A DNA stretch of 63,855 nt, filler included, from Folioceros fuciformis (Eukaryota): NCBI GenBank assembly GCA_049999805.1. It is 10 parts of 10 records of this genome, joined end to end, with 100 filler letters (N's around TTAATTAATTAA, not from the genome) between each part and the next. Parts side by side here need not be neighbours in the genome. Positions count along the whole stretch, not along the records: positions 18,278 to 27,815 come from JBNGIO010005729.1; 9 more parts are not named here. One strand, given 5' to 3'. A program made the position numbers and the translations under genes. The notes beneath the pieces were generated by a model. It worked only from the letters and a program-made list of their open reading frames with translations. It was not told where the DNA came from and searched no databases. Shown one piece after another: positions 5,217-39,300 of this stretch. Numbering within the stretch: position 1 is the first letter of the stretch; every line of letters begins with the position of its first letter.

Positions 5217-6030
5217 GTGGCACCTTCTTAAGCTCCGCGAGCATGTGCGCGCGTGGCGGTTAGGGCGCTCAGTAAACTTGTTGTGCCGCCACGGCGAACG
5301 CCACCAGCACTCGATCTGTACCTTTGGAGTACCTAAAAGCGATCACGGGACAGACGTCAGCGGCCACAGTTGTGGCTTGGATGAAGCTCACACTTCCCCA
5401 CACAATCAGACACAGCTGATGGCGTCGCTTACCCGTATGGATGCTCAGCTCAGTTTTCCTTTTCTGGCCATTTGGTGTTCCCTTCCATACTCGCACGGCA
5501 GCGTGAACACACCGCGCAATAGGGCATTGTGCTCTTCCTCAGGTAGCTGTGTATCTTGTTCCTGCTCGACGTGTTGCGTGCTGTAGCAAGGCAGTATCAG
5601 CAGCAGCTCCCTAGCGGGGGAGGAATCCGGCGGGAGCCATCTCGGGCGGAGGCGTAATCTCTTGGTAGGGCGGCGCGTGTTAGGGTAAGACTGAGGCACG
5701 GGGCGGTGCTGTTGAGACGAGTGTCATGGCTCATCCTGACACCGCTCCACCCGGCCTTAACCGTTGATTCGCGTATTTGGCCTGAGAGGGGGTATTAAAA
5801 TACTCGGGTATACCAGGCCTAATATGGAATAACGTTTGGTATTTAAGTGGAGCGTTACGTAGTGTAGCATTTCGCTAAATGGCGTTTCGTGTTTTAAGTT
5901 AGGGTTGAGACGGTTACGAACAGAGCCCTTTTTGTATCGCTGTTTCAATGCAAGAATACACTTCTTTGTGCTTTCATGTGTATGCGTGAGGTGGTCTGAT
6001 GTTTTGGGTACATATTCTTTACCTGCTTGT
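5217..6030 (+). repeat. LTR-like non-coding segment after Copia pol (boundaries uncertain)
   Basis: No coherent ORF. 5770-5802 (cgcgtatttggcctgagagggggtattaaaata) resembles the reverse complement of ~23570-23605 in the Gypsy LTR region. No clear PPT or TG...CA ends found. Confidence 0.3.
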
Positions 6031-6049
6031 CCAGACCTGACTAGGCAAA

Positions 6050-7850
6050 CAGCCAGGCCACTAGTCATTAGCCCCCCGCCAGCCATCAACCACTAGCCTG
6101 CCTGCAGCCCGACCAGGCTGCCTGCGCTGCTGATGCTGGGTCACCTGCCGAATGGTTCCGTCTGCCTGGCCAACCAATGGCAGGATCCGCTTGCCTAGTT
6201 TTGCCAGCACCCTACCGACCAGAGCCGATCCGGCTAGCCTAGATGGCTCCTGCTTCGATCCGCCTGCCTAGCTGCCAGCTTAGATCTATTGTCAGGCCGC
6301 CCCGCTGACCCAGCTAGGCCTATCTGTCGATCCGGCCTCCNNNNNNNNNNNNNNNNNNNNNNNNNNNNNNNNNNNNNNNNNNNNNNNNNNNNNNNNNNNN
6401 NNNNNNNNNNNNNNNNNNNNNNNNNNNNNNNNNNNNNNNNCTCCCCGAGCTCGTGCTTTGCTCAGGACCAACTGGCCTGCCAGCCAGCCATTATCATTCA
6501 GCCAGCCCGGGCGAATCCAGCGCCGCCCACCTGCCTTCAGCCCAACTAGCCACAGCCAGCCTGCAATACGCCTACAAACCAGCCTCTTGCCTGCCGAGAT
6601 CCGTAAGCCATACCGGGTTGCAAGGCAGCACCTTGCTCCCTGCTTGGTCGGCTTGGCCGCGATCCAGCCAGCTGCTAGGATGCGCACCCCCTACAGTGGG
6701 TTGGATCCGGCCTGCCAGTCGGCCGGGCCGCCAACCAGGCTACCTGCCCGGGTCGGCCATCCCTGAGCGCCGCTTGCCAACCATCACAACTTGGATCAGC
6801 TCGAGGCCCGCCTGGCCTGGACTCTCCCCAGGCAGTCGCCAGGCGGCTGCATGGCTTCGGGATCCAGCCCTACTAGCCTGCTGAATCCTCCAGCCACCGG
6901 CCTCGCTAGCCCCAGCTGGCTGTCTACCTGCAGGGTCACCTGCCAGCTGCCTGCCGGTTGTGTTTGCGCTGCTAGGGCGCCTGCCTGCCCTCAGTAGCCG
7001 GGCCGCTACAAGCCGCCGGCAATCCGGCCTGCCTCCTAGCAACCAGACCGGGCTGGGCTGGGCTGGCCGCTAGTGGTTGGGCTGCCTGCCTCCAACCGTG
7101 ACCAGCCACAGCCAGCTCGGGCGCACAATCGAGCCGACTGCACTCCAGCTGGCCGATTTGCCCAGGTAGGCCGCCAGTCCTATCAGCCAACCTGCCCGCC
7201 CAAATCTGACTGGCCGCCAGCCTGCTTGGGATCTTGCAGGCAGCCGGCCTGCCTTCCGGAGCCGTCCAGCCAGCCAACCAGAGTCGACTGGCCAGCCTGC
7301 CCCCACTTGGTCGACTTGCCATCCCGACTGCCTACCTGCTGCTGGGCCGGGATGGCTGTTGGCTAGGCTCTTCAACGGCCGTCTCCAGCCAGCAGACCCC
7401 CCCCCTGCCAGACCTCAGCTGCCAGCTTGCCTGTAGCTGGATCATGTCGAGGCCCGCCTGGCTTGGATCCGCTAGCCTCTGGGCTGCCTGCTCTGTTGGG
7501 TCGCCGGCCAGCTGCCTATTGCTATCCACGCTGCTGGACCGCCTGCAGCTCCTTGGCGACCCGGCCTCCAGCAGGCACGCCCTGCCTGATTTGCTCCGGC
7601 CTACCACAACCCGCCGGAGCAGTGTGCCTTTGACTGGGGCCTCCCATGCTAACCAGCCCTTGTCTGGCCCAGTCTCGACCAGCCGGCCTTGGCCCTACTA
7701 ACCAGACAACCGGGCCGTTGTCGGCCCGGCCATCCTCCATGCCGCCGGCCATGGCCCGGCTGATTGGCCGCCGATCAGCCGGCATGGCAAACTCCTCTAC
7801 AGCAGCAGGTCAGGCCGCCTGCCGAACAAGATCCGGCTAAGCCTGGCCCT
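6050..7850. repeat. GC-rich, internally repetitive dispersed repeat (GCCAGC/GGATCC/GGCC-rich)
   Basis: Low-complexity GC-rich tract. 7381-7470 matches the reverse complement of ~13431-13520 in another contig. The overlapping ORFs are low-complexity artefacts. Confidence 0.75.
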
Positions 7851-8076
7851 GACGTAAGTGGTTGTAACCGTAAGTGGTTATAACCACTATAGCTAATAAC
7901 TACCTAAATAACCCTAGGTAGATAATTAAAGCTAAGAGGCCCTAATGAATAGTGCCCTAAATCTAGACTTATTTCATCACTCCCACTCACTATGAATGCA
8001 GGGATGAATTCTAGCTTTTAAATGAGGCTTATAACATATATAAGCTCATAGGTGATGATAATTTAGGTAAAGAAAA

Positions 8077-8176
8077 NNNNNNNNNNNNNNNNNNNNNNNN
8101 NNNNNNNNNNNNNNNNNNNNTTAATTAATTAANNNNNNNNNNNNNNNNNNNNNNNNNNNNNNNNNNNNNNNNNNNN
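8077..8176. other. Artificial contig linker N44-TTAATTAATTAA-N44 (first of nine)
   Basis: Same 100-nt pattern recurs at 11875-11974, 18178-18277, 27816-27915, 44509-44608, 46443-46542, 57429-57528, 61306-61405 and 62745-62844. TTAATTAATTAA puts stops in all six frames. Confidence 0.97.
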
Positions 8177-11100
8177 GCTGAAGCATATATATGTCTTCAT
8201 GCAGTGTCCCATACAGGAAAGCCGTTTTGATATCGAGCTGGTGGATATCGAGCTTATGTTGTGCGGCAAATGCCAAGAGAACTCTGATGGATGTTGCCTT
8301 TACCACTGGGCTAAACAGCTTAGTTTCCTTATAGTCGAAACCTGGGATTTGGGTAAATCCCCAGGCTACGAGCCTGGCCTTATACCGTGACACGCTTCCA
8401 TCTGGGTTGAGCTTTCTCCGGAAAGTCCACTTACAAGAAATTGGCTTTCTGCCCTGTGGTAAGTCAGTAAGGATCCAGGTTTTATTTGAAAGAAGTGAGT
8501 CGTATTCAGATTGTACCGCTGCTTTCCATTCGGGTATGTTGAGAGCTTCCTCAATTGTTGTAGGTACTCCTTGCATTTCAATAGCTGATAAGGCTTGATG
8601 CATGGCGAGGTGTGCCTGATCGACTGGTGTCGGTGCATCTGAAGGTAGGGATGCATTGGGAGAGGAGATCCTACTGACCAATGTGTCTCCCGGAGTATAG
8701 GGTGGATCCGACCACTCGGTCCTGGGAGGTCTATGCCTGGAAGAGCGTCTTAAAGTCTGTACATATGGTAAGTGAGGAGGTTCAGAACCTATAGGTTGAT
8801 TAGAATTTACCTCTCGTACTGCTAATGGAGGTAATGTGAGGGCCTCTTGATCTTGGAAGGAGGATGACTGATCGGAGGAGTAAGTATCGTCATCGTGTGT
8901 GCCCCCCTCAAGATCAAGAGGGGGATAACCATGAAGACCAGGTTTGGGAAGTGGAGTTGATGTAGACGTGCTATGGAGGTAGGTTTGGAGCAAGAGAGGT
9001 TCATTGAAGTGAACACTGCGGGAGAGGGTTACCTCATGAGTTGAGGGATCGAAGAGTTTGTAAGCTTTGACTTGATCGGAGTAGCCTATGAACAGGAGCT
9101 TCCTTCCCTTGTCGTCCCATTTTTTTCTGGTGCTTGAGGCTATATGAGCAAAGGCTGGACTACCAAAAATACGGAGGTGAGAGATGTGAGGCTTGCGACC
9201 TGTCCAGCGCTCAAAGGGAGTAGTATTAGGCAGATCCTTGATGGGCAGATGGTTTTTAAGGTAGATAGCTGTGGAGACTGCTTCGGCCCAATAGCCACAA
9301 GAGAGGCCTGAAAGCTTAAGGAGAGAGCGGGAGATTTCGAGGATGGACCTGTTAAGTCTTTCGGCAAATNNNNNNNNNNNNNNNNNNNNNNNNNNNNNNN
9401 NNNNNNNNNNNNNNNNNNNNNNNNNNNNNNNNNNNNNNNNNNNNNNNNNNNNNNNNNNNNNNNNNNNNNACGTTGAATGCCGTGGGTTTGGCAAAACTGG
9501 TGAAATTCATGGCTAATGTATTCCCCGCCGTTATCTGAGCGGAGGACTATGACCTGGAATCTAGTGTGGCGTTCAGCCAAGGAGACAAACTCTTGAAAGC
9601 GGGCAAGGGCTTCGCTCTTGTGTTTAAGGAAAAAGATAAGACAGTATCGACTCCACTCATCGAGGAAGGTAATGAAGTATTGATGCCCCCCAAAAGACGT
9701 AGTGCTCATGGGACCGCAAATGTCTGAGTGTACAACTTCTAGGAGCTTGCGGGCACGAGTTGAAGTAGTATTGGTAAAGGGGTTCTGGTTTAGTTTCGTA
9801 TACTGACAGATCTCACAAAAGAAGTCTGAAGATACCTTAAGCTTGATAGTGTCTTTATACATGTTTGGATTGGCTAATTGACTCAAGTATCGGGGGTTCA
9901 TATGACCTGCCCTGCAGTGCTAGAGCAATGACTCCTTGTATGAGCTGGAGAGGGTGCCATCAACAAGAAAAGATGATGAAGATTGGATATTCAGGAGGTA
10001 AAGATCGTTATATGGCAGACCATGGGCAAGGGCAGTGCTACCTGGATTGGCAGAGTGGTGAATGGTGCAGTGGTTACCTTGGAAAATGATTACCAGACTG
10101 TGTTCAGTGGCTAGCTTCCTGACGGAGAGTAAATTTTTGGTCATTGTAGGGACGTGGAGCACCCCATTGATGGTGAGTGTTTTGCCATTAGATAGTCGAA
10201 GTTGTACTTCGCCGGTGCCGATGATGGAAAGAGGGCTGTCATCTCCCAGCAGCACGTGTTGGTCAGAGGGCACGTCGTGATACGTGCTAAACATGTCTCT
10301 ACTGCTACAAATGTGAGTTGTAGCGCCGGAGTCGAGAAACCATCTGGTCTTGTCGGTCCTCGTGAGGGTGAGGCAAACGGCCATGATGGAACTTGTCGGG
10401 GTGGTCCTTGAAGTAGTGAGGTGAGACTCATTCTAGGGTGTGTCCCTCCTTGGCTCTTTGCTCTGCTTTTTCCTGCACTCGTGCTCAAAGTGGCCTGGTA
10501 TTTTACACCAGTTGCAGATGCCCTTTTGAAATGATCTGTTAGCTGGGCGATTGCTGGGAGCAAAATTGCCTTGTGGTGCTTGCCTAGGTTGTCTGCGAGT
10601 CAAGAGATTGTTGCGGAAACCTCCTCTACGAGATCCACGACCCCTCGATGTGAAAAGCGCGTGGTTGGGTCCAATTGCAAGCTTATGTATAGTTGATCGG
10701 CTAGCTTCTTCCTCTAGAAGGGCTCCGAGAACTTCTGCGAATGTGTATGCAGGTATTGATCCTGCTTGAGCTGCACTTTGTGCCTGGCGAAGGGCTGAAC
10801 TTTGTGAGCTCACGAAGGTTTTGTATGAAGTAGGAAGAGAGGTTAGTAGGGCGACCGCTGCTTGGTACTCGTTCAGTGGGCTTCCACTTGATGCAAGTCT
10901 TGCTCTTGTTGCTCTGAAGTTGTGTACATGTTGTTCGACTGTTTCGCTCTCCTTCATTCTCAGCTGATGAAATTGCCGCGTGGCATTTACGATAGACATG
11001 GAGCTTTGCGCTGCGAACATGTCTTTAAACACTCTCCAGATCTCGTGGGTAGTCTTCTGACCTTGAGTATGTTGGAGCATGTTTTTGTCGAGTGCTGAGA

Positions 11101-18277: not shown

Positions 18278-21200
18278 GGTGTGATCTGTAATAGTCCTGC
18301 CATCTGCCCCCTGTAGCAGCAGCAAGGCGTTACGTCTCACTCCCTGATCCGCAGCACATGGCGGCTAGTGCTGGTGTCTAGTGTATCACCAGTCTGTCGC
18401 TGCAAATACACAAAGTCCCCAAATTGGAACTTCTTGAGTTTGGGCCTGAAACTTCCGCTCCTAGTATAGGCATATACCTAAGAGTGTCCCTGTGCTGTGC
18501 GATGTGCAAATTTGCCATAGCCATGGGCATGACCTGCCTAAACATCGTAGCCCTCTCAACAATGACTTTGGCCCATACAGCCGGATTGTCTAAGTCCACC
18601 ACCTGCTGCAGTTGCTTAGTGATGGAGCTAGGTGGCATTGGCTCACGGCCAAAAAGTAGGAAATACGGTGAGAAGTGTACCAAAGAGGCATACTTACTCA
18701 TCCGATATCCCATTGTGATGTAGGGCAAGGCGAGATCACACTCGATCTTAGGCATTTGTAGACAGAGCTTCCTCAAGCCCTTCTTGAGTGTCTGGACCAT
18801 TCGCTCTGCAAGACCATCAGCCTGGGGATGGTCTCTACTTGTCCTACAATGATCTATCAACGCTGCGTCCAATAGATCTTGGAATTCACCCCTGAATTCT
18901 GACCCCTGGTCAGTTAAACATTCTGCACAGCTGCCGAAACGACTAAGTACATTCTACAAGAATGCTTGAGAGGTGCTCCTAGACGTCTTGTCACGCAATG
19001 CGATAGCCTCCACCCACTTGGAGAAATGCTCCATCATGACAAGCACGTGCACATTCCCACATGCAGTGCGTGGCNNNNNNNNNNNNNNNNNNNNNNNNNN
19101 NNNNNNNNNNNNNNNNNNNNNNNNNNNNNNNNNNNNNNNNNNNNNNNNNNNNNNNNNNNNNNNNNNNNNNNNNNTACACATTCCCACGTGCAGTGCGTGG
19201 CAGCTCCCCAATCAGGTCACAAGACCATTTGAAAAAGAGGCCCATGATAGGCAAAGGATGTAGCTCTGGGTGCCGGATGGTGAAGGAAGTCTTCACCCTG
19301 TCGCATGGCTCGTAACAGGCAACCCAGTCACGCACTTGACCATGCATCCCATGCCAATAAAAATGAGGGGCTAGCAAGCTGTAAGTGCGTTTGACGCCAA
19401 AATGACCCATATCATTGTGCACCTTACTAATTAGTGCAGCGCTGTCAGCTGGTGGCGGCATCAAGCGTTCAATTCCATGTGCCAGCTTCCTAATAACATA
19501 ACCATCCCGCCAATAATATGTGGCAGCACGATGCTTGACTTATTCAGCTGTGGTTGGTGGCAACGTCGCATCAGCTGTCCTGTTTGCAGATACAGCAGTG
19601 TGTAAGGATCTTCCCAAATGTCCTTAGCCAGTCGCATGGGTACAGTTCTGCTGCCACTGTCGACACACACCATGGCCACCAGAGCAGCAACCTCGAATGG
19701 TTCATAAGGCTCATAATCATGCCTTGCCTCGGTGATGTCCAGACAGCTGCTATTTGGATTCCTAGAGAGAGTGTCTGCATTCTGATGCTTCAGACCTGGT
19801 CTGTGAACCACCTGGAAATCATAATCCTGTCTATCACTCTCTCATTCCTTTCTTCATCGTGCTGAGCCAAAACTGCCCCAAGGCCCAAGCTGCTCCAGTC
19901 TATGTGTAGCACAAATGGCTACTTGAAATCAGGTATGGCCATCACAAGTGCAGAGGTCAACCTGGATTTCAAGGTATCAAATGCCTCTTGCATAGCCTCA
20001 GTCCAAGTCCATACCACACCCTTTCTAAGCAGGTCGTTGAGAGGCTTGGCAATACGGCTGAAATCTGGATATATATTCGATAATAATTGCAAAGGCCAAG
20101 GAATGCTCGCAAGGCAGAGACGTTAGTGGGCTCCTTGACCTGCAGAATGGCCTGCACTTTAGCTGAGTGTGGCATCACGCCGTTGGGAACCACCTTGTGC
20201 CCTAAATATGCAACTATATCCATACCAAATTCACATTTGGCTGGATGGCACTTGAGCTGAGCCTTCCTTAGGCGCTGGAAAAGGTCCTCCAAGTGTTCCA
20301 AATGTGACTATGGAGAAGTAGACAGATCTACCGATGCTGTCAAAGATCTCCTCCGGTGTAGGCATAGGGTACCTGATCTGGGCTGTCACAGCGTTGATAG
20401 GGCGATAATCACCACACGTTCTCTTCTCCGTCCATAAGCCATGGCTATCCTTCTTAGGTGGCATGACAGTCGCAGCAGCATAATCAGAACTGGAAGGTCT
20501 GATTAGCCCTGCCTTGCATAATTCCTTGCACCTGGCATCCACCATCTCCCACTCAGATTGACTCAGCCGATACCTTATGCGATATATGGGCTCCGGGCTT
20601 GTGAGGTTGATCCTGAAGGTTGTGATGTTGCAGCGTTTCAACTCCTTCATGGAGAACGCGAAGCAATCACTGTACTTGAGAATCAATGCCCAAATCTGCC
20701 TCTGCTATTCATCAGTGGGCTGTGGTCCCATGTGCCAGTTGAATGTTTCAGCAGTGAGTGGCACCTTGGTTAATGGCTCTTGCTCACATCCACCTTGAAG
20801 GTCGATGCAGAAAAAACAGAGTGGTGCCAAGCAGCATACTCCCCCCCCCCCTTGGATCAAGCCTGAAAGGTAGGCAAGGATAGCCAAGGAAAGGTAGGTG
20901 GATTGCATCTGCTGGACAGGCCATGGCTATAAGGCTTGCAAGGGTGCCTCTGGTTAGCAGTTGGAAAGCCAAGCATAAACTCACAAGCCAAGTGATGGCG
21001 TGCAAGTCCATAGGTCGACCGATAGCAGCACAGCGCTGAGAGACTATAACCTGTGGTGTTGCCGTGGCATGTGCTGGAAAGCCCATGATCTGCTCACGCT
21101 CCTCAATGCGGGGCTCTTCCCATTGCTTTGTGATGGTGTTGTATAGCAATCCAGCACCATTGCCGCGATAGGCAAAGGAGCCAGGAAAGCTCACCAAGGT

Positions 21201-23350
21201 AGGCAACATGTTGCGAGGCTGACCAGGTGTGTTGGTTGGATCCCACGGTGGTCACTCACTAGCAACCACAAGCCTAGGTTTATGATCTGCATCCAACACA
21301 TCCTGCTGCCGCAAGGTGGGATCCCGCTTCGTGTTGCGAAGCATGAGTGCCAAGACTGAATTAGGGATGAGGTTGGTCCAGTAGTTGCACAGACGGTGTG
21401 CATAACTACCCACCTGGACAACATCCACAAAAACGGAGCACCAAGATGGTGCTCCATGACTCCCATGTCCTATCGCACGGAGTCCCTCTTGTCAAGCTGT
21501 GCTGGGGTGTTCTCGAGGAGATAGCCACACTGTGGATTTTCCTGTTGCACCCATGCCAAGATCTGGTGTAGGTCTCGGAACAACCCAATGCGATGGTCCT
21601 CCAATCCCGCTCCTGCGCCTGCTTGGGAGAACCCTTGGCATTCCCAGCCAGCTATTAGCACGTCTATGGATCCCAGGGCGTGGAAGCTAAGGCTGCCTCC
21701 AATAGCTGTGCGGGGAACCTGCTGCGGAGCTCCTGCAAGCGATGAGCAGCTATCTGCCGTGCTTCCCCACTGCTGTCACAATATACATAACGCCTGATAG
21801 GGAGGCCTACCTTAAGCAAAGCCTCTAGGCCAGTACAAATGCCGCCAAACAGCTCCACGAGAAAAAGGCCGGCGGCTGGGATAGGCCCATCAATCACCTG
21901 AGACTTGACAACATGCTCTTGCATGGGATCCTTGAGTTCTCGCTGCAATAGAGCTTGCACCTGCTGGACATGCTCGTAAGCATCCTACAGCACACCCTCA
22001 ACTTGTGTGGGATGGTCAGCGGCCTTGATCAGATATGTCAATCTGCATGTGGCTGTGGTGTTGTTGGAGTAGCTGTCACAGTGCTCCTCCTCTTGCTCTC
22101 ACTCTAGGTGGTCCTCATCCTACAAATGGTTGCTGGCCAAGGGTGTTCCCTCACTGACCAGGACTGCTGTACGGGCTTGTCGCTCTATAAGTGTAGCTGT
22201 GTCAGCCTCTGACATGTCATGCAACCGAAGGAGTAAGTGTGCCACCCTTCTCCCTCCTTCCTTCCAATCTGGACGATAATACGCCTACTCTGTCCAGTTG
22301 TCCACACTTAAACCTGGTGGAAACAGAAATTCTTGCCCTAATAGCACGTCATAGTTTGTGGCTGTTGTCACTAGGCATGGAAGACTCACCGTCATGGCAT
22401 TAGAAGTGCCTGGCTTGAGTGTGATATCCACAGGCTTGACCGTCGCTCCGGCGACTGGCTCAATTGCTCCTAACGCTGTCCTTATGCTCCAAGGAGAGCT
22501 CTTGAGAGCTGAACCATCGAGGTTGAGCCTAGAAGCTAATGTCTTGCCAATGATCACTAGTTGAGCACCAGTGTCGAGCAGTACAACCCTTGGGGCATAC
22601 CCATTCACGGTAATATGCCTCGCATCGTTGTCAACAAGTGCATTGCCGACTCTGACTGCTAGGCGGTTGGTGGGTTGGATCCTAGGAGAGCTAATGGGTT
22701 GAGCAGGCTGCCTTCCAGCTGCTACAACTTCAAACATGCTTCCAGCTATTGTCTCCTTGGTGCATCGTGAGATGCTACTAGGTACAACCCACCCATCTTG
22801 AGCTAGTGGCCAGCATGACGCTCCTGAAGACAATACAGCTGCTTGCGTTGGTTGCAATTCCTTTGGCAGATGCTCATGTCCTAGCCCATGTCTTGCAAAG
22901 AAAATAGAGGAATGCCAGTCAGTTTCTCAGATAATTGTTCCACAGTGAAGGCCTTGGGCATCAAGTAGACTGGCCCACTGGCTGACACTTGTGGTTGCGG
23001 TGGAGGCTTGTCTACTGTCTGTGGCCCTCCTGCCAATGTGGAATGCTCTTGCCCTCGGACTGGGAGTGCACTTCCTGGTGAGAGTGGTGCAAAAGATTGG
23101 GGCATGACCGCCCTCGCTCCTCGCTGTCGAGTGACTGGCCCTGCTGCCGTCTCCAACACTGGTGGGTATAAATGTTGCCCTACCCACGTTTGTGGCAACT
23201 AAGCAGTTGTCATCTCAACCTCCATCCAGCTGGCGACACACACCTGATGTGGTGAGCCGTAATCCTCCTCCTTGTCTCGGACCAGTTCAGCAACATTGGC
23301 TGGTTTGGGTGAGGTTGCTCCACTACTGAGACAAGCTGTGTCAGATACCA
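18278..23350 (-). mobile_element. Ty3/Gypsy retrotransposon with order PBS-(gag remnant)-PR-DNA methyltransferase-RT-RNase H-INT, decayed
   Basis: Protease VLLDTGAQLVIIG (ORF 22285-22857). RT GLIRPSSSDYAAATVMPPKKD...RTCGDYRPIN (20231-20686), then a deletion removing the YxDD region. LRAFLGLCNYYR; RNase H end HRPGLKHQNADTLSR; integrase HHCC HNDMGHFG...WVACYEPCDRVK; core HPQADGLAERMVQTLK. RT-RH precede INT (Gypsy order). Many stops and frameshifts. Confidence 0.93.
20985..21870 (-). pseudogene. DNMT3-like C5 cytosine DNA methyltransferase domain embedded in Gypsy pol
   Basis: Motif I LVELFGGICTGLEAL (~21860); motif IV IDVLIAGWECQGFSQAG (Cys 21638-21640); motif VI YLLENT (~21514); motif VIII VDVVQVGSYAHRLCNYWTNL (~21428-21369); motif IX EEREQIMGFPAHAT (~21104); motif X QRCAAIGRPMDLHAITWL (~21020). 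Order is canonical; broken by two frameshifts and two in-frame stops. Confidence 0.88.
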
Positions 23351-24120
23351 TGTCAGAGATATAATCTTGAGAGTAGCGTGCAAAATAGATGCCTTTTTAT
23401 TTTACGTGGAAAGTGTCTTGTGATAATGATAATAAGTACCAGCAGCCACCCTTGTTAAATAACTGCCTACATATCCTACGAAACGATCTACCATCCATGC
23501 CGTTCCACCGGCCGCATCGTTTCGGTTGGGTTTAATTAATATAATATATTTATGCCTAAGGATGCAAATATCTATCCTAACACCTCCTCTTAAACCAAAC
23601 GCGGAACGACGGGAGGATAGGGCACGCGCCGCCACATGCTTTGGGTCGGGGACTGAGAGCCACACGAAAAGCGGGTGGTAGAGCTTGGGCGCTATCCCAA
23701 AAGGATTGCCGCGCATGCCGCCGAGAACGAGTGGAGCTGGAGGCTTGCAAGTTATGGTCGCAACGCTTAGGAGAGGGCCCGGGTGCATCGATGAGGCATC
23801 GCAGTGTGTTGTGGAGATGGGTTGGCCCAGAATCGGCGTAGTGCTGGGAAGACGTCCACGCCGCGGGGGCCACGGGTATCCCGCCTAGCGCGCTAGCTCC
23901 AAAGACTGCGTTTTCTTGTTCGTGGCGAGAGATCGGGTCTGCAAGTTGGTCTCTAATCTTGGGCTATGTATTAGCAGACCACGGGTGCCGAGAAATGCTG
24001 CTGGGTCTTGGCGGGGCTGAGACCAAACGCTTGAATTAATCGCTGGAGCTTCATCCATTTGGTGAGCCGGTGTCGGTTACGGGCGGGCATCAACGACCAC
24101 TGATGTCCGGTTATGTCTCA
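23341..24120 (-). mobile_element. PBS-like site (23341-23350) and probable 5' LTR of the DNMT-carrying Gypsy
   Basis: Minus strand reads ...CTCTGACA|TGGTATCTGA, i.e. a terminal CA directly followed by a partial tRNA-iMet PBS. Upstream is non-coding with an AT-rich TATA-like tract (~23532-23552). Distal boundary uncertain. Confidence 0.6.
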
Positions 24121-24251
24121 TTGTTGAAATCTGTCTGATTTGCCTAACTGTGTGCCCTCTTGTGGCAAGTGAGCACAAAGGCTGGGCTGTGACGGCCGTC
24201 GGGAGAGTATATGGCGTCAACTCGGGTAGCTGACTGCGGGTAGCCTTCAAG

Positions 24252-27200
24252 TTTCCCCCTCTCTCCGGCCCGGCACTTTCAAGTGTCAACATAAGCAGAG
24301 TAGTCACAGAGGCCAAGCCCCCGCATGTGAAGGTGATGGGGGAGCTTAGGCAAACCCTTTGTGAATGTGTCTGCTGTGTTCGAATCTGTGCTAACATGGC
24401 TGACGTTGATGATGCCCCTGGATACCAGATCTCGTATGTAATGGTGGTGCACTTCGATATGCTTCGTTCGGGCGTGGAAGATTGGCTTAGATACTAGCTC
24501 CAGGGCCGAAGTGTTGTCACATAGGATAACTGTGGGATCTGATTGTGGGTGGCCAAGGCCCGTAAGGAAACTTCTTTCCCACTCTGCCTCTTTGGCTGCT
24601 TCCGTCAGCGATTTGTATTCTACTTCAGTGGAGCTGAGGGCAATCGTGGGTTGTTTCTTGCTGCCCCAGGTGACTGCTGCTGATGCAAGAAGAAAACAAT
24701 AAGACGAAATGCTGCGTCTGGAATCTGAATCCGACGCCCAATCGGCGTCAGAATAACCAGATAAGGTAAGCCGTTGGTCCCCACTTCTCTTGTACATCAG
24801 GCCATAGTTTATTGTACCCTGGAGATAACGGAAAATTCGCTTTACTGCTGTCCAATGGACTCTCCCGGGACATTCAAGGAATTGATGATACAGTGCTAAC
24901 TGAGTACTGTATGTCGGGCCGAGTCCAGTTGGCGACAAATAATAGGCTGCCCACTGTGTGCCTGTAAGGTACGCCTTCCATGTCCTTTAGTTCATCTGGA
25001 GTCTGTGGGCTCAGCTCTCCAATGTCCTTCATGTCGAACCTCTGGTGTAGCTTTCTCTTGACGTCCGCTAACAGTGCATGGTCGTTTGTAGCAAGGATCA
25101 AATCGTCAACGTAGAGGGCAAGCAAGACGACAGAAGTTCCTCTCGTGAGCATATATACATTGGTGTCGGCAGTGTTCTGAACGAAATCGATACTTATCAG
25201 GTAAACGTGCATTGTGAGGTACCATACCCTTCCACTTTGCTTCAGTCCGTAGATACATTTTAATAACCTGAGCACTTTATGCGGGTGTGCAGGGTCTTCA
25301 TAACCTTCGGGCTAAAACATATACAACTCCTCCTCAAGGACCCCGTACAAGAAAGCGGTGCATACGTCCATTTGCTCGAGGTCAAGGTCGAACTCTGTGG
25401 CATAAGCAAGGATGAGACGGATGGATTGGCTGCGGACAACAGGTGAGAATGTTTCTTGGTAGTCCAGCTCTTCCACTTGAGTGAACCCCCTCGCCACGAG
25501 TCGTGCTTTGAACCTGGCCACTTCCCCTTTGGCATTAAGTTTTAATTTGAAAGTCCATTTGCAGGATATGGCTTTCCTGCCTGGAGGGAGATCAGTGAGG
25601 GTCCAAGTTTTATTCTTCACTAAAGATTGGTATTCTTCCTCAACTGCCTGCTTCCAGTGCTCACGTTCAGGACCGTTGAAAGCCTGAGTTAACGTAGTAG
25701 GTTCCTCAGGTAGGGGTAAGGCTGGTCCAAGAGAAGGGACTGAATGGGTCCGGAAGTCGGTAGAAGCATAAGGCGGTTCCTTCCATTCAGATGGTGGGGG
25801 TCTGTGACGCGTGGAGCGGCGGGGAACGTCAGGCGCTGGATCAACCTGAGGTGGAGGCTATGAAGGGTTAGCCGAGGTAGGTGCATCATCAGCTGGCCCT
25901 ACATCCCCCTCTGCATCCAGAACAGGTTGATCGGGGACTGCATCCATACTGTCCGCAGCTATGGTGTCTGCATCTGCATCAATATTGTCAGGAGGATCTA
26001 AGTTGTGATGTCCTGCAGGCATAATAGGTGGTGCCATGAGTTCAGTCTCATCATCATCAAGGGGAAAGACTGCAGGTTGATCCGCCAGAGGGGGTGGGGT
26101 AGGACCCGCTGACGAATCATCCTCGGAGGCAGGAGTGTGAAGTTCAATAAAGGTGACACTCCGTGCAAGCACAATAGTGTTAGCTTCTGGATTGTAAAGC
26201 TTATAAGCCTTTGAGTGTTCGCTGTAGCCGACCAGAATGAGAGCCTCAGCGTGGCTGTCTAACTTGTGCCTTTTCTCTTTGGGTATATAAGCATATGCGC
26301 GGGATCCGAAGACCCGAAGGTCGAGGAGGCTAGGCTTCTTGTTCCAAAATACCTCGAACGGGGTTCTGTTCGGAACAGTACTAGTGAGCACACGATTGAG
26401 AATATACGTTGCTGTTACTATGGCCTCAGCCCAATAGCCCTGAGGTAAACCTGCCCACAGTAGCATACTTCTTGTCATAGATAGTAAGGTCTGATTTTTA
26501 CTTTCTGATACCCTGTTCTGTTGGGGCGTGTAGGGCACTATTGTCTGGTGTAAGATTCCATGGGACTGCAGCAGTTCTTCAAAGTTGGTGTTAACGAATT
26601 CGGTGCCATTATCTGTCCGGAGGGTCTTCAAGAGCTGCCCGGACTGTCGCTGAGCAGTGGTAAGCCAGTCTTTGAAGAACCCATAAGTGTCACTCTTGAA
26701 CTCCATTGGGAAAGTCCATGTAAGGCGGCTATAGTCATCAGTAATTGTGAAGAAATAGCGGGCACCTCCTAATGAAGGTTCGTGGACTTTACCTGAAATG
26801 TCGGCATGAACCAACTCAAGAACTCTTGTGGCCCTCTGTACAGGCGAATGGGGGAAGGGCAACTCTCGTTGCTTAGCCAGTATGCAAGATTCGCACACAG
26901 GTAATTGCTTGAAACATTTTGGTAGAGGCTCGCGATGGCACCCTAGAAGTGACATATCTATCAGCTTGGACCTGTTGATATGCCCCAAGCGGGCGTGCCA
27001 AAGCAAAGCCTGTTGTGCCTGACTTAAGTTAGAGGATGAGGTTAAGTGGGTAGTTTCATGCGATTCTGGTCCAGTACAAGTGATGTTCAATCTATACAAG
27101 TTACTTTCGGGCAGGCCCTCAAAAGCACATGTATGAGGGGATGACTGCCTATAAAAGCAGCAATGGTCAGAATCTGCATGCATGTAGAAGACACGTTGGC

Positions 27201-27815
27201 GCATGATCTGACTCATGGACATAAGGTTTTTAGCCATGCTTGGCACATAGATGACATCATCTAGAATTAACTCTGTGCCATCGTGTAGTGTGAAAACACA
27301 GGTACCCCTGCCCTGAATAGGCAAGCTTGATTTACTTTGTTCGTCCGCAAGAAATACCTGACCACCTGTTTGTGTCAGGTCTAGGGTTTTGAAGAGTTCC
27401 CTTTTCTTGCATATATGGGTGGTGGCCCCTGAATCAAGGTACCAGCGACTGTCGTCACTCCGAGTGCTGAACAGGCATACTGTAAGTATCTTCACGGGGG
27501 CCTTAGAGTCTGCTTTGTTCTGCTTCACTGCTACATTTGCTGTAGCCTTTGGTTGACGTTGGGGCTCACCTGCCTTCCGTTTACGGCATTCTCTTGCCCA
27601 GTGGCTAGGGAGGCCACACCAGTTGCAGCTGCCGAGTCGCTTGGCAGCATTAGAGGGTTCTCCCCTCTGTCCTTGGGTTGCCGCACCTCGAAACTTTGAC
27701 TTCCCTTTGCGAAAGTTGGTTACTAACGCTCTCTCCCCTCTGTTCTTGGCAGTGGAGGAGAAGGTGCAGCTCTGCTCCTCCTGGAACAGTGCACCGATCA
27801 CCTCCTCCAGGGTGA
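24252..27815 (-). mobile_element. Ty1/Copia pol (CCHC-PR-INT-RT-RNase H) with polypurine tract, decayed
   Basis: [85 protein letters not shown]; stop at 24279. PPT GGAGAGAGGGGGAAA at 24266-24252. Internal stops and an RT deletion. Confidence 0.95.
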
Positions 27816-33328: not shown

Positions 33329-36300
33329 ATGCGTCCGGTTGCTTCCGAAAAGGATCACGGACGCGGTGAGTTTCAATCTGGACCATGGGAGCAAACAGCC
33401 TTTTTTTCCTTACCACCATTGACATTGACAGTCTTCATCTTCCTGCATGTTTGTGGGGAAAATGTGCTGGATTGGCCAGCCTTGCACATCACATCTGTAT
33501 TGGGAATGTCAGGTCATGTTGTCGGACAGCATTAATGCTTCTAGTCTTCCTGCGAATTTAATCTGGGCCACCAGGGCTTCAAGATGTAAAATCCAGGCCA
33601 CAGGATATTTTACCTCAGAATTAGATAAGGTCGTCATTAGTTTCCTCCGAAGGATTTGAGTGCTTCCAGTTCCTGCATTCATGACACACAGACTTGCTAG
33701 ATGTCTCTTTCTTTCTGGCAAGCGTAGCTCATGCAAGTTTCTTTGATTTGTCCTACACTTCCAGGAGCAGCTTGTGCGAAAGGCCGGTGTTACTGGTGGA
33801 TTTTGCATCAGGGGCTGTTACTGGTTCCGCTCAGGATGGCCATCATGGTCGAGGTTTTGCAGAGAATCATCAAGAAGCTGGTGAACCTGAGGTTGCGCCA
33901 AGTTTTGAGAAAGGAGTGGTTGATTGTCTGGGCTCAGGCTGGATGGACGTTAAGAAGGTCATCTATAGTCTGCTGTGAAGCTTTTTTTTTTATTGCAAAA
34001 ACCAGTTTAAACAGCTTACGCTCTCGTATTGATATCGGTTCAAAAATGATTTGCTCGCTCTGGGACTTCTGTGCTCTATTTAGCTTCTTACCTACCTGGA
34101 AGGTCCCTCTAAGTTGCTGTATGTGTGGCAGGTGATCGAGTAGGAATTGTGTATGCTAATCGTGGGATGGTTTCTTTCTCTCTAACGGTTTCAGCTCTTG
34201 TTTTGATTGATTCTGCAGAAGTGTAAGTCATCCAGCAAGTTCTTGGGCAGTAGAGGTAACATGGCGAGCAGAGGCACCCTTGAATCAAACCGGAGTGCAC
34301 AAGCCAGAAGGCCTGAATCTGTCTCGGCTGAAGTATCAGAAGGGAGTCGTAAACTGACAGCTGTATCATCTCAACAGGCAAGTGGCGAGAGTCCACAGAA
34401 TCAAGTCCCTAGGAAACAGTGCAGTACTCCAGATGGCAACTTCCATCTGTCACGTACAACAGAAGCAGCTTGTGCATGTGGTACTATGGGCAAAGGTGTA
34501 CTTGATGCTGCTGGAGTTGACACATCACAGAGGGAGAGCAGACTGAGTTCCAGCCTACCTGGTAAGCAACGTGGGAATAACTTACCCCAGTTTAGATGGG
34601 GGGATCTTGATGAAGAGGATTTGAGAACCACCCATTTGGATGTGGAGAGCGGTGTTACACATACTGTGGCGAAAGAAGGATTTGGTTGTGAGGATAATCA
34701 CGTGGTGGCAACCACTCCAAATGCTAATTCTGAACTTGCAGGTAGGGTAGTACAGCTTGCAGAGCTCAGTGCCAGTGAGATTGTTCAAAGAAGTAGTTTT
34801 GTTGACCTACACCATACGCAGACCATTCCAGGGAAGGAGAGTATCAACAATTCTGACCAGCCTCAGGGTTTTGAGGAGGAAATTGTTACATCCTGGGACA
34901 AAAGGTCAAGTACCTGGGAAAGGAAGGCGTATATACATCCTGGCATTTTGGCGGAAGATGGTTCAGATACTGTTCCGCTACATTCCTCGGCTGTAGGGGT
35001 TGTTTATCTAGAGGATAAGGTTGGTGATTCTAATCAAAATCCAGTGAATGAGATGGATGGAACGCTACAAGGCAAGGACAATCAGCTCGTTGGAATTTAT
35101 GCGAGAATGGACTCACGAAAGCTTTTCAGCGTCGACGATTCTCTTTCCCAATTGAAGCTTAGAAGTCCTGCTTCTGGCTCTGAGCCTATGGTATCAAATC
35201 CCTCTAGATATTCTGGTGAGGTGCCACTAATGGATAACAAGGTTTCAAGCATTCCAGCAACTGATAGGCAGGACGAAATGGTTGAAAGGAAGGAAAGATT
35301 TCGACAGCGGCTCTGGTGTTTCCTGTTTGAAAATCTTAATAGGGTAATTGATGAGCTCTATCTGATGTGTGAGTTGGAATTCGACACTGAACAAATGGAT
35401 GAGGCACTTCTTGTACTAGCTGACGCAGAGATTGATTTCCGAGAACTGAAAGCAAGAGCAGAAACATTCGACAACGTCCGAAGTGGGGACCTTCCGAATC
35501 CAGGTGGTGCACACAATGCAAGATTATTACGGGGAGAGCACCAACGGCCGCATGCAATCGCATGGGAGGTGAGCTTTGCAGCGATTTCCTCACTTCCACA
35601 TCAAATCCTGGTGCCCCGGGGAGATGAGTAATGGTACATTTGCGAATTATGACCTTTTTGGGTAGTGTGAGCATGTGATATACTAGTGATGAGGTATTTC
35701 ATATCCCAGAATCTTGTTTGTAGTAATACCGTGTGTCTTGTCCCGGAATGTAGGTGCGTCGCATGGCATCGTCACCTCGCTGGGCAGACATACTCTCGTC
35801 TTCTCTCGATGCGTTTAAGAAAGTTCAGTCTGACAAATCTCATGAACGCTTTAAAATTCGGGGGAAAAGACGTGATGCTGTCAGATTCCTCACTTTCGAC
35901 GGAGATGCTCCCCTTCCTGAGCCGGGGGAGCCATTTGAAGTAGTTGAGACTGATAAACGAAAAGTGGTTGTTCAGCCAGAGAAAACTGCTACAGATCTGT
36001 GTAGAGGAAAGGAGGATGTTCCCTGCCAAGGTGGGGAAAGGCAGGCCGAAGTTTCGGTCCCTGATTTGCCTTCTGTGCGTGGTGGGCAACAGTGTGAGAC
36101 ATCTACTAGTTCCGTTAAGGGTGTGGACGCTGCAGAGCATCCACGAGTGGTTTCTGCAAGGTCCAATTGCGAGAGATATTATGATACCAACATGAACCCA
36201 CCAGCGTCAGCTGCTGGAACAGTCTGCAGCTCAGGCAGGGAGCGGGTAGTTGGTGGGAGCAAAAGTGCTATTCAAGCTTGGAAGGAGAAGAGAAATTGGG

Positions 36301-39300
36301 AAGACATTCTCACCTCTCCACTACGGAGTTCATCCCGCCCTTCACGGTCACCTAGCACTGGTAGGAAAAGTGTGCGTGAATTGCATGATAAGTTGATGTC
36401 TCCAGAAAAGAAGAAGAAAAGCCCGTTGGAGATGAAAAAACAGGTGGATGAGAAACAGGCCCGTGCTACGAAGTTGAGGTTGGAACTGGAGAACGAGAGG
36501 GTTATGCGCTTACAGAGAACAACAGAGAAACTCAATCGGGTTACTGAGTGGCAAGCTGTCCGAAGCAGTCGGTTAAGAGAGGGAATGCATGCCCGTCAGC
36601 AGCGGGGAGAATCACGTCACGAAGCTCATTTGGCACAAATTGCAAGGAGAGCCAGTGATGAGAGTAGTAAAGTTAGTGAAGTCCGGTTCATAACCTCATT
36701 GAATGAGGAGAACAGAAAGCTGTCCCTACAGCAAAAGCTGCAGGACTCAGAACTAAGGAGGGCTGAAAGGCTGCAAAACATCAGGATCAAGCAGAAGGAC
36801 TTAGCCAAGGAAGAGGCTGCACTTGAACGTCGCAAACTGCTTGAAGCAGAACGACTGCAGCGCATTGCTGATGCACAGCGTAAAAAGACTGAGGCCAATC
36901 TCCGAAGGGAGGAGGAACGTCGAGCTGCAAGTGCTGCTCGTGAGGCCCGTGCGGTCGAACAAGTACGTAAGAAGGAAGTAAGAGCAAAAGCTCAAGAAGA
37001 AGAGGCTTTGCTTCTAGGTCAAAGGCTTGCTGAGAAGCTTCGAGAAAGCTCTGCCCGTCGGAATGTTTACTTAGAGCAAATTAGAGAGAGGGCCGGTACT
37101 GAGCCTGATAAAACTGATAAGAGGAGAGATTTCCAGACTGATTCTCCATCTCGCAAGTCGCGGGATGCATTGGCAAGGCTGGCATCGGGGGGCGATCGCT
37201 TGTTAAGAGTTGCGTCCGGCCCAGCGACAGAGAGTGACACAGCTGAAAGGGACGCTGGAAGCATGGGAAGATCCAAGGGAGGAACTAACAGTGGACTGAT
37301 AAATGCATGCTCTGATGCCAGCAACGTGTCAAGTCAGCAGGCTTTGAAGAAACGGGTGAAGAGACTCCGACAGCGACTTGCAGCTCGCAAGTTTGACTTT
37401 GTGGAGCCTCCTACCAGTCCAGAATGTGGAGGAGTTGGCTTAAACTCAGTCACCAGCACGGCTCGCAGCAAGATAGGAAGGCTGCTGTCAGATTTGCAGA
37501 GATCTCTACATTCAAGGAAGGCAGGGGTTCCAGTATCGGTTGTTGGAGAAGTTGTGAAGGTTTGCCAGCTTCTGTATTTGATCTATATAGTGAATGACCA
37601 TGTTTGATGTCTGGAAGCACAATTCATAGGTTCAGCTGTCTAATTGTTTTTCTTCAGAGTGTTTTCTGCCGTGAAAAGTGCTTCTCTGAATTTCTGTGCA
37701 GTATCTTGATGGCAAGGAAGCAGAACTACATGCTGCACGGCAAGCTGCGCTTCTCGATTATGTTGCAACTGCTCTTCCAGCATCGCAGAGTAGCAAACCA
37801 GAAACTTCTAGAAGCACCATCGCATTGCTTCATCTTCTCTTGGTTCTGTTGTCTCTACCAGTCAACCGTAGTTATTTCATTGCTCGCAATCTCCTGCCTC
37901 CATTGGTACCCATGCTGGCTACGGCTCTGGAAAATTTTTGCAGTCTAGGCTCTGCTACTGCAGTAGTTACTTCCCATAATGCTTCAAAGGAATCAGGTGT
38001 GGAAAAAGCACTGGTGGAGGAGAAGCTCGAAGTAGTGGGTGAGGTCTTGGAAGGTCTTATGTTATCAGTCACAGCAGTTATGGCGCACCAATGTACAGAT
38101 GATAGGTTGCTGGTCATGCAGGATGACTTGGCAGAGTTAATTGTTGGTTGTGAAGTTCTTCACAGGTTATGCGATCTATTTGCTCTCTTTGACAGGCCAT
38201 TTGTTGAAGGTGCACCCATCCCCGTTACGGTGCTTCTGGGTCTCAGGTTGCTGGAAACCCTCACGGGCCACAGAGATCGGAGCTCATCAGTTGAGGGACC
38301 GGTTACTTCAATGGTAGACATAAGTGACAGGGTGTCCACAAGAAGTGCTAATCAGGCAGTGCAGGTCGCGAAGACAGTGACTCTATCTGAAACTGGAAAC
38401 GGATTTGCAGTGAAGGAGCATGATGGTGCAAATGGAGTTGCGTGCACAAGTCTGAGTGCTACAGATGAAGCTTGTGACTATCCCTTGGGCACTGCAGGTG
38501 AACAAGGTGACTTAGGAGACCTGCAACTTGAAAATGTCACAACTGTGCCAGTTATCTCCGAAAATGAAATGATGAAGGAGCATATGTTTTCGTGGAACAC
38601 TTCCAGAACTCTCTCAGTGCAGCCTAATTTGTTTTCTGGTTACAGTTTGTCGATGATCAGGGACAATATATCTCAGCATCGTCCTACCCATGGGTCTCGT
38701 TCTAAGGAACTTCTTTTATCTGTGGCCTTGGAGACTGGCTTAATTCGCCTCCCTTCCTTGCTCACTGCTGTCTTACTTCAAGCCAACCCACGATCTTCTC
38801 CTGAACAGGCTGCTGCGGCTCTTCCACCGAACTTTGATGCAGTGGCTACCAGTGTTCTCAGGATTCTGAACAATTTGGCAAGGCTCGATCTATTACTTGT
38901 TCAAAACATGTTGGTAAGACTCTTTTTTTGCGTTTCCCATACCCTTCATCGGGGTAAATCTTTTACTTGTTTGTGCCTAACATTCTAAAGCTGCATGCTC
39001 TTTCCACATTCTTCCATCTCTTTGTTGTATCAAAGTACTTAACGGTGCAAAAATGCAACAGGCATTGCCAGATTTGAGAATGGAGTTCTTCCACCTGATT
39101 AGCTTCCTATTATCGCATTGTACTTGCAAGTGGAAGAACACTACCGACCAGGTATCTTATTGCGTATGTCTTGATTTGCACCCCATCGATTTGGCACTCC
39201 AGTCCGGTCCCTCACTGTTTTTGGTTTTATCAGGTTGCCTCTCTTCTTCTCGAGACACTTCTGTTAGTTGGGTACTTTGCTTTGTTGCACCCTGAGAACC

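Follow-up and report, generated by a model that had tools for sequence, protein, structure and literature searches.

A decayed Ty3/gypsy retrotransposon copy with a DNMT3-like methyltransferase domain between protease and reverse transcriptase in a Folioceros fuciformis assembly

Retrotransposon-encoded methyltransferases and the Folioceros locus

Dnmt3-type cytosine methyltransferase (DNMT) domains within the Pol open reading frame (ORF) of retrotransposons have been described in a Gypsy long terminal repeat (LTR) element of the streptophyte alga Klebsormidium nitens and in DIRS elements of the dinoflagellate Symbiodinium (de Mendoza et al., 2018). Here, we analysed a stretch of 63,855 bases from an assembly of Folioceros fuciformis (the window), in which a Ty3/gypsy copy on the minus strand of one contig (18278–27815, 9,538 bases) carries a DNMT3-like domain between the aspartic protease (PR) and the reverse transcriptase (RT). 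The locus is very probably a dead, 5′-truncated copy of an element whose pol natively contained a DNMT3-type domain, in the order gag-PR-DNMT-RT-RNase H (RH)-integrase (INT), and is of one kind with the Gypsy-Dnmt3 element of Klebsormidium. The window itself is not a single locus: it comprises 10 contigs linked end to end through N44-TTAATTAATTAA-N44 spacers. Some of these contigs contain internal 100-N scaffold gaps, and a 100-N gap in the DNMT-bearing contig (19075–19174) lies inside the integrase.

An earlier sequence-only reading of the window had proposed this architecture and had named the 2018 study as its precedent; the reference proved correct as far as the text of that paper goes. 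Its suggestion that the architecture is new for land plants held in part. The class itself (Dnmt3 in a Gypsy Pol ORF) has been in print for K. nitens since 2018 and is thus already known, and what is new here is the probable embryophyte host together with the wide spread of the lineage among streptophytes. Literature searches gave no description of a land-plant Gypsy-DNMT element in the text of papers, whose figures and supplements may name more species. In the text of two later reports, Klebsormidium is still the only streptophyte case cited (Sarre et al., 2025; bioRxiv 10.64898/2026.05.21.726589).

By its published description, KnitGypsy-Dnmt3 shares with the present lineage an intronless, non-permuted Dnmt3-type domain in the Gypsy Pol ORF of a streptophyte, and purifying selection on this domain (Ka/Ks <0.2 in the text of the paper vs. 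0.136 between metagenome loci L001 and L002 here). The two differ in their hosts, since the host here is probably an embryophyte, and in their repeats: a DIRS-like arrangement is given in the text of the paper, whereas relatives of the window copy have ordinary flanking LTRs and the window copy itself shows no repeats. SymbioDIRS-Dnmt3 of Symbiodinium likewise holds a Dnmt3-type domain within a Pol polyprotein, but according to the same text this dinoflagellate element is of the DIRS type, has a tyrosine recombinase and represents an independent acquisition. The EpiLTRs of Cymbomonas tetramitiformis and Euglena gracilis (bioRxiv 10.64898/2026.05.21.726589) are also LTR retrotransposons with a cytosine DNMT, although the text of that preprint describes their DNMT as sister to DNMT4, attached to the 3′ terminus of pol and accompanied by a DAM adenine methylase and a chromodomain. 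The host enzymes DNMT3 and DRM share the catalytic fold and motifs with the element domain, DNMT3A, DNMT3B and DNMT3C being its best profile and fold matches. In contrast to these enzymes, the element domain lacks PWWP, ADD and DUF companions, is not permuted like DRM, reads Glu-Cys (E-C) in motif IV of the window's sublineage, and is intronless and placed inside a retroelement.

The methyltransferase domain and its place in pol

The DNMT domain of the window copy was located on the minus strand.

20949–21903, minus strand: DNMT3-like C5 cytosine methyltransferase domain (PF00145, family hidden Markov model and lineage profile; motifs I, IV, VI, VIII, IX and X in canonical order)

The domain is spread over three frames (21664–21984, 21470–21775 and 20784–21491), and an in-frame TGA is present at 21252–21254. 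Motif I lies in the minus-strand ORF 21664–21984 and motifs IV and VI lie in 21470–21775, followed by motif VIII in ORF 21252–21491 and motifs IX and X in ORF 20784–21251, the last two ORFs being in the same frame with the TGA between them. All six motif strings quoted in the sequence-only reading were recovered in minus-strand reading frames. Piece 21470–21775 alone passed the PF00145 gathering score of 22, with 31.2 bits and an E-value of 2e-7. The three pieces aligned to positions 12–80, 88–159 and 173–334 of a family hidden Markov model (HMM) of 340 positions built from relatives, with E-values of 1.6e-23, 3.4e-24 and 3.8e-64, respectively, in a small database. Because positions 12–334 of the 340 are covered in order, the whole catalytic domain is present in a canonical, non-permuted form, in agreement with the motif order read earlier. 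In addition, piece 20784–21491, searched with an X at the in-frame TGA against a library of 1.84 billion proteins, matched 576 proteins at E ≤ 1e-3 and 317 at E ≤ 1e-10, with a best E-value of 3.3e-44. The DNMT matches are far beyond chance.

The copy is collinear with residues 746–2242 of two intact polyproteins, P0132 and P0158 (tblastn), and the order PR-RT-RH-INT, with the integrase downstream of RT, is that of Ty3/gypsy elements (Pfam and tblastn). The other parts of the element, from upstream to downstream, are as follows.

22881–23350, minus strand: upstream open frames running into the protease, in the gag-PR linker region (ORFs 22881–23198 and 23199–23396)
22234–22926, minus strand: aspartic protease, core at ~22324–22614 (PF13975, 6.7e-10; PF13650, 8e-9; tblastn to P0132 746–922 and to the PR of Closterium P0059)
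20237–20893, minus strand: DNMT-RT linker and N-terminal part of RT, the fingers (tblastn to P0153 293–455, 57% identity, and to P0132 1278–1476)
20050–20307, minus strand: C-terminal part of RT, past the palm (RVT_1 profile positions 166–205 only; tblastn to P0132 1537–1622)
19578–20065, minus strand: RNase H remnants in two frames (RT_RNaseH_2 profile positions 1–27 only; tblastn to P0132 1618–1694 and 1764–1851)
19180–19539, minus strand: integrase H2C2 zinc-binding domain (PF17921, 1.8e-14; tblastn to P0132 1867–1985)
18280–19073, minus strand: integrase catalytic core and C-terminal stretch (tblastn to P0132 1979–2177, 49% identity, and to P0158 2195–2242; weak rve matches)

The protease ORF 22285–22926 matches gag-asp_proteas and Asp_protease_2 (Pfam), and the tblastn segments span 22788–22234 for the protease and 21724–20964 for the DNMT, the latter reaching 21867 with Closterium P0059. 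The N-terminal part of RT itself occupies 20237–20755, in accordance with the RT start near 20690 given by the earlier reading, and homology to the linker begins at 20893, with a frame shift near 20755–20814. Residues 1476–1537 of P0132 have no counterpart in the window (tblastn), showing that the RT palm is deleted and that the deletion proposed earlier is real. The RNase H segments (20065–19832 and 19829–19578) lack the part that corresponds to P0132 residues 1694–1764. The integrase core (19073–18474) is followed by a C-terminal stretch (18429–18280) that is cut by the contig end at 18278. Pfam, tblastn, profile and fold comparisons together confirmed what had been proposed, namely a Gypsy pol in which PR and RT flank a DNMT3-like domain.

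The place of the domain within the polyprotein was further examined in relatives. P0132, a protein of 2188 amino acids in one ORF from a cluster of three members, has the order gag-PR-DNMT-RT-RH-INT, with zf-CCHC at 530–547, protease at 796–888, PF00145 at 978–1226 (46 bits), RVT_1 at 1421–1575, RNase H at 1638–1766 and integrase at 1895–2061. P0153 (468 amino acids), the closest longer relative with 49% identity over the DNMT part, has one uninterrupted frame that spans motifs VI to X and enters the RT, where it shares 57% identity with the window. DNMT was followed by RT in 6 of 156 fetched proteins, and PR stood directly upstream of DNMT in seven further clusters. Furthermore, a metagenome scan with a three-sequence alignment as query yielded 68 loci, the domain order of which was assigned by tblastn; a scan with P0110 alone found no relative. 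DNMT was followed by RT in 43 of these loci, 10 of which also had PR upstream, and the remaining loci comprised six with RT-RH-DNMT, one composite, four with PR-DNMT only, nine with DNMT only and five with other or no domains. Gag was found in P0132 and in locus L007, and L001 is open from 976 to 8226 save for one TAG. Gapped self-blastn revealed flanking direct repeats in L046, L006 and L058 (344, 307 and 337 bp; 91%, 94% and 88% identical), spaced by 8.7 kb in L046 and L006 and by 10.6 kb in L058, and TG opens the repeat of L006, whereas CA closes that of L046. A gapless repeat search did not find LTRs in four metagenome loci.

These data bear on a different origin of the domain, namely that a host DNMT3 pseudogene or retrocopy was captured inside one Gypsy copy, giving a nested or chimeric locus. 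Frameshifts abound in the window copy, and both linkers that flank its DNMT hold in-frame stops; a single frame can thus not be proved from the window alone. However, the same order is found in the uninterrupted ORFs of P0132 and P0153 and in 43 of 68 independent metagenome loci, both linkers of the window copy are homologous to those of relatives (tblastn and alignment), and the break load of the DNMT is about equal to that of the rest of pol. The single-ORF relatives, the 43 loci and the homologous linkers exclude a nested host-pseudogene insertion for the lineage, and capture of a host gene by this copy is extremely improbable. The DNMT domain is native to the Gypsy polyprotein and not a nested insertion; the earlier statement that it had been part of the polyprotein is borne out by the single-ORF relatives, the collinearity of the window copy and its similar decay.

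A single in-frame TAG was observed in the DNMT-RT linker of the otherwise open pol frames of L001 (position 5083), L002 (2081) and L007 (4509). It is the only stop in 7.25 kb of L001, occupies the same codon in L002 and lies 6 alignment columns off in the more distant L007; P0132 and P0153 do not have it. This TAG could be a programmed read-through stop, which would make Gag-PR-DNMT abundant and RT-RH-INT rare, or could reflect early CAG/TGG-to-TAG decay.

The family affiliation of the domain was evaluated using two profiles, A2, built from 19 members of the window's own lineage, and the broader A1. Against solved structures, profile A2 matched DNMT3A (2e-24, 89 bits, in one stretch over 226 positions), DNMT3B (4e-23) and also DNMT3C, followed by weaker matches to DRM (1e-13), M.HhaI (6e-12) and DNMT2 (1e-8), and DNMT1 was absent among its matches at E ≤ 0.01. 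Profile A1 gave the same order of matches, with DNMT3A as the best. Moreover, an AlphaFold2 model of the relative P0068, made with A2, had a mean predicted local distance difference test score (pLDDT) of 83.2 and a predicted template modelling score (pTM) of 0.86, and in a Foldseek search of this model against PDB all listed matches to rank 48 were methyltransferase domains of DNMT3A, DNMT3B or DNMT3C, with E-values of ~1e-18. The nearest Atlas cluster is a PF00145 family with recorded taxa mostly in Streptophyta, which is to be taken as a lead only.

Several results weigh against reading the locus as a Gypsy copy with a native DNMT3-type enzyme. Piece 20784–21491 (motifs VIII–X) alone gave no PDB match at E ≤ 1, and piece 21470–21775 (motifs IV–VI) alone matched only M.HhaI (0.002). 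The window pieces are too diverged for DNMT3 to be detected from a single sequence, and the DNMT3 call therefore rests on the lineage profiles and the model of a relative. In addition, no LTR, gag or primer-binding site of the element was found in the DNMT contig: tblastn with P0132 residues 1–745, the gag region, gave nothing anywhere in this contig, ORF 22881–23198 matched no Pfam family, so that a gag domain was not recognised in the gag-PR linker region, and direct repeats were not found in the contig, where the element is cut by the contig end and the neighbouring copia. Finally, the DNMT domain of the Klebsormidium Gypsy produced no methylation in yeast, a null result that its authors call inconclusive in their text because human DNMT3B failed as well (de Mendoza et al., 2018). 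With these points considered, the assignment of the domain in the window's lineage as DNMT3-like is supported by profile and predicted fold, rather than by a reference-family tree.

Conservation was assessed in a set of 38 alignment columns with a conservation of at least 90% and a residue in no fewer than 60 rows. Retention was nearly complete for the motif IV Cys (105 of 106 rows), the motif VI Glu and Asn (123 and 120 of 124 rows, respectively) and both motif VIII Arg (148 of 151 rows in each case). The ratio of nonsynonymous to synonymous substitution rates (dN/dS) of 0.136 for the DNMT domain of L001 vs. L002 was obtained at dS 0.26, and other locus pairs gave 0.10–0.24 with dS saturated. 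The near-copies L010 and L006 gave 0.88 at dS 0.058, as expected under neutral decay after insertion. The residue counts and substitution ratios indicate that the catalytic residues are conserved and that the DNMT has evolved under purifying selection in the lineage. The window DNMT keeps 35 of the 38 columns; one falls in a break and two are changed (A177V and R188C). R188C affects the second motif VIII Arg, so that the window copy, in which the catalytic Cys, Glu and Asn are still present, does not hold the intact catalytic set of motif IV Cys, motif VI Glu-Asn and both motif VIII Arg. The reading of E-C rather than Pro-Cys (P-C) in motif IV was also considered as a sign of decay and was ruled out, since the intact P0132 and P0004 also read W-E-C-Q.

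In live members of the family, the DNMT would be translated within Gag-Pol, between protease and RT. It would be packaged with RT in the virus-like particle and either freed by the protease or left fused, and may then methylate cytosines in newly synthesised cDNA or in the DNA where integration takes place, so that each insertion would arrive with a host-like methylation mark in place. A cDNA-methylation model for Pol-embedded Dnmt3 was proposed by de Mendoza et al. (2018, Nat Commun 9:1341), whose text bases it on the de novo CG methylation produced by SymbioDIRS-Dnmt3 in yeast. The window copy is inactive under any model.

Alternatively, the DNMT fold may have been kept for a non-catalytic role, such as nucleic-acid binding or chromatin tethering, or for the methylation of RNA. 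The yeast result for the Klebsormidium domain and the E-C in place of P-C in motif IV of the window's sublineage would fit such a role. However, the catalytic Cys, the Glu and Asn of the ENV motif and the motif VIII Arg are nearly invariant across 105–151 relatives, among the profile matches the DNA enzyme DNMT3 comes first and exceeds the RNA enzyme DNMT2 by 50 bits, and the authors' own caution about the yeast null applies here too. We consider this alternative improbable and retain DNA cytosine methylation as the likely activity of the domain in live members.

Spread of the lineage and host of the contig

A second arrangement, RT-RH-DNMT-INT, was found in 77 of the 156 fetched proteins, usually with a PHD finger after the integrase and once also with a Tudor domain (for example P0012, P0019, P0025, P0030 and P0047, and loci L033–L036 and L039). 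These elements resemble the window copy in having a related DNMT3-like domain (32–45% identity) embedded in a Gypsy pol, but the domain stands between RNase H and integrase. In a FastTree phylogeny of 161 DNMT rows, 77 of 78 RH-DNMT-INT rows fell in one clan of 119 rows (support 86), and the window together with all DNMT-to-RT rows lay outside it. An IQ-TREE quick search was run with 64 rows, namely 40 from outside the clan (one with an RH-DNMT-INT label) and 24 random full-length clan rows. The 25 RH-DNMT-INT rows were placed on one side of a branch with a Shimodaira–Hasegawa-like approximate likelihood ratio test (SH-aLRT) value of 97, and the opposite side contained the window, every PR-DNMT and DNMT-RT row, and the Closterium, Marchantia and Calypogeia rows. 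The nearest rows to the window, P0153, P0002 and P0010, were grouped with it at support 89 in FastTree and were not resolved in IQ-TREE. Both trees hold only query relatives and are unrooted, so they show one change of architecture and not its direction.

Taxon names were looked up for a sample of 30 proteins. Within this sample, the RH-DNMT-INT arrangement is represented by two chlorophytes, Haematococcus lacustris (KAJ9512490.1) and Cymbomonas tetramitiformis (KAK3250090.1). Only streptophyte names occur on the window's side: Closterium sp. NIES-68 and NIES-53 show gag-PR-DNMT, and Marchantia polymorpha (OAE24016.1) and Calypogeia fissa (CAM6104272.1) retain short, decayed DNMT remnants. No Klebsormidium protein was among the 30. 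The Cymbomonas RH-DNMT-INT-PHD element is distinct from the DNMT4-like EpiLTRs of Cymbomonas, as these are described in the preprint text, and literature searches gave no description of the RH-DNMT-INT-PHD architecture in the text of papers, whose figures and supplements may hold more species. The two orders, PR-DNMT-RT in streptophytes and RH-DNMT-INT-PHD in chlorophytes, with their reciprocally separated DNMT lineages, offer a handle on the movement of accessory domains in pol. If our reading is true, the chlorophyte elements would be a sister lineage in which the domain moved within pol.

The identity of the assembly was evaluated using a SCAPER-like gene (PF16501), which occupies three consecutive ORFs of 474, 617 and 432 amino acids at 34207–38988 on the plus strand of another contig (27916–44508). 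The first ORF matched only embryophyte proteins at ~105–126 bits, with Chara braunii at 67 bits and one eukprot sequence carrying a non-embryophyte label at 46 bits. Summed over the three ORFs, the scores were 988 bits for Diphasiastrum complanatum, 962 for Adiantum nelumboides, ~900 for Physcomitrium and Ceratodon, 895 for Gb_27228 and 870 for Selaginella, and the best matches were all near 57% identity. These matches indicate that the assembly is that of a land plant which has no close relative among the named proteins and is most like seed-free lineages.

The DNMT contig itself holds a second retroelement, which was also used in assessing its host.

24279–27813, minus strand: Ty1/copia neighbour, outside the Gypsy element (gag end, PR, INT, RVT_2 and RNase H; PF25597, PF22936, PF00665, PF13976 and PF07727)

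The contig might instead come from a streptophyte alga living on or with the plant, such as a Klebsormidium- or Closterium-like contaminant, in which case the element would be real and its land-plant setting an artefact. The named relatives with PR directly upstream of DNMT are from Closterium, the published case is from Klebsormidium, and the DNMT contig carries no host gene. Two further results are in keeping with such a source. At E ≤ 1e-5, blastn detected no similarity between the DNMT contig and any of the other nine, and the copia has no close or taxon-informative relative: in a protein search, the best relative of its polyprotein among proteins of 1141–3255 residues was 38% identical, and the named matches, at ~30–35% identity, were a mixture of Asteraceae and arthropods and thus taxonomically uninformative. 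With no relative above 38%, this copia belongs to a divergent copia lineage.

By contrast, decayed relatives of the DNMT are annotated in the liverworts Marchantia polymorpha (on a 292 kb contig) and Calypogeia fissa (on a 13.3 Mb contig), showing that land plants do carry this DNMT lineage. The GC content (0.43–0.58) and the CpG depletion (observed/expected CpG, 0.47–0.73) of the DNMT contig lie within the range of the other contigs, including the one with the embryophyte SCAPER gene. Moreover, 713, 803 and 445 contig pieces were placed on 19175–27815 at 85% identity or more in three DNA runs (one sample, one organism label), and all 30 bins of this interval were covered by such pieces. In run X1, 107 pieces were at least 99% identical to the window, 186 were at 95–99%, 244 at 90–95% and 176 below 90%. 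These counts and this spread, from <90% to >99% identity, show that abundance and divergence characterise both repeat families in the sample, Gypsy-DNMT as well as the adjacent copia; a trace contaminant would explain this less well than residence in a large genome. An algal source is accordingly rather unlikely in our view, and the DNMT contig likely belongs to the land plant. The suggestion in the sequence-only reading that the element is new for land plants is partly upheld by the embryophyte gene on another contig and by the liverwort remnants, with the host of the DNMT contig itself being likely rather than secured.

On balance, the data somewhat favour a high-copy Gypsy family with its own DNMT3-type de novo methyltransferase, resident in a seed-free land plant, with copies more than 99% identical and possibly active fairly recently. 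Taken with the decayed liverwort remnants and the PR-DNMT members of Closterium, such a family would imply that the element-borne DNMT3 lineage arose early among streptophytes and persisted through the move onto land. If true, land-plant methylomes would be exposed to transposon-encoded de novo methylation. Cytosine methylation is the main weapon of the host against transposons, and an element with its own de novo methyltransferase turns this weapon around. The phenomenon is documented in print so far for one streptophyte alga and dinoflagellates, and a multi-copy land-plant family together with the liverwort remnants would widen it to embryophytes. If the host assignment holds and intact copies exist, the family would provide a system for studying the action of an element DNMT3 on cDNA and integration sites and its interplay with the RNA-directed DNA methylation (RdDM) and CMT pathways of the host.

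In run X3, C>T (277) and G>A (142) differences were in strong excess over other changes, as in a bisulfite- or enzyme-converted library. Methylome data for the organism probably exist.

Decay of the copy and its surroundings

At least eight frame changes are spread over ~4.6 kb of pol, compared with two frame changes and one stop in the ~1 kb of the DNMT. This similar break load shows that the DNMT decays like the rest of the element. The window copy is dead, as had been recognised earlier from its stops, frameshifts and RT deletion: the frameshifts and stops are joined by the loss of the RT palm and of part of RNase H, and by the Arg-to-Cys change in motif VIII.

The mode of this decay was also apparent. 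CpG depletion is the strongest of the window at 18278–23400, with an observed/expected ratio of 0.42 and a TpG/CpA excess of 1.46. Transitions far outnumber transversions among family copies in the contig pieces of the DNA runs, and A177V and R188C are both changes of the C-to-T type. The loss of CpG, the excess of TpG/CpA and the transitions are the signature of decay through deamination of methylated cytosines. In addition, other family copies in the DNA runs of the same organism differ from the window by indels of 1–2 bases at 19571, 20063, 20782, 20841 and 22884, and several of these lie at or near frame-change sites of the window copy, which indicates that at least some of the breaks are confined to this copy or shared by only some family members.

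The copia at 24279–27813 lies directly upstream of the Gypsy-DNMT copy on the same strand and probably accounts for the missing 5′ part of the latter. A second Ty1/copia is present in the window at 812–3676 on the plus strand of contig 1. The open frames of these two copias are 651 and 954 amino acids long, respectively, and are only 33% identical to each other, which gives no connection between their contigs. An Rfam search over the whole window gave nothing at gathering score. At 50392–52650 on the plus strand, a 752-amino-acid open frame matches the SET domain weakly (24.6 bits), contains a stretch rich in cysteine and may represent a SMYD-like host gene.

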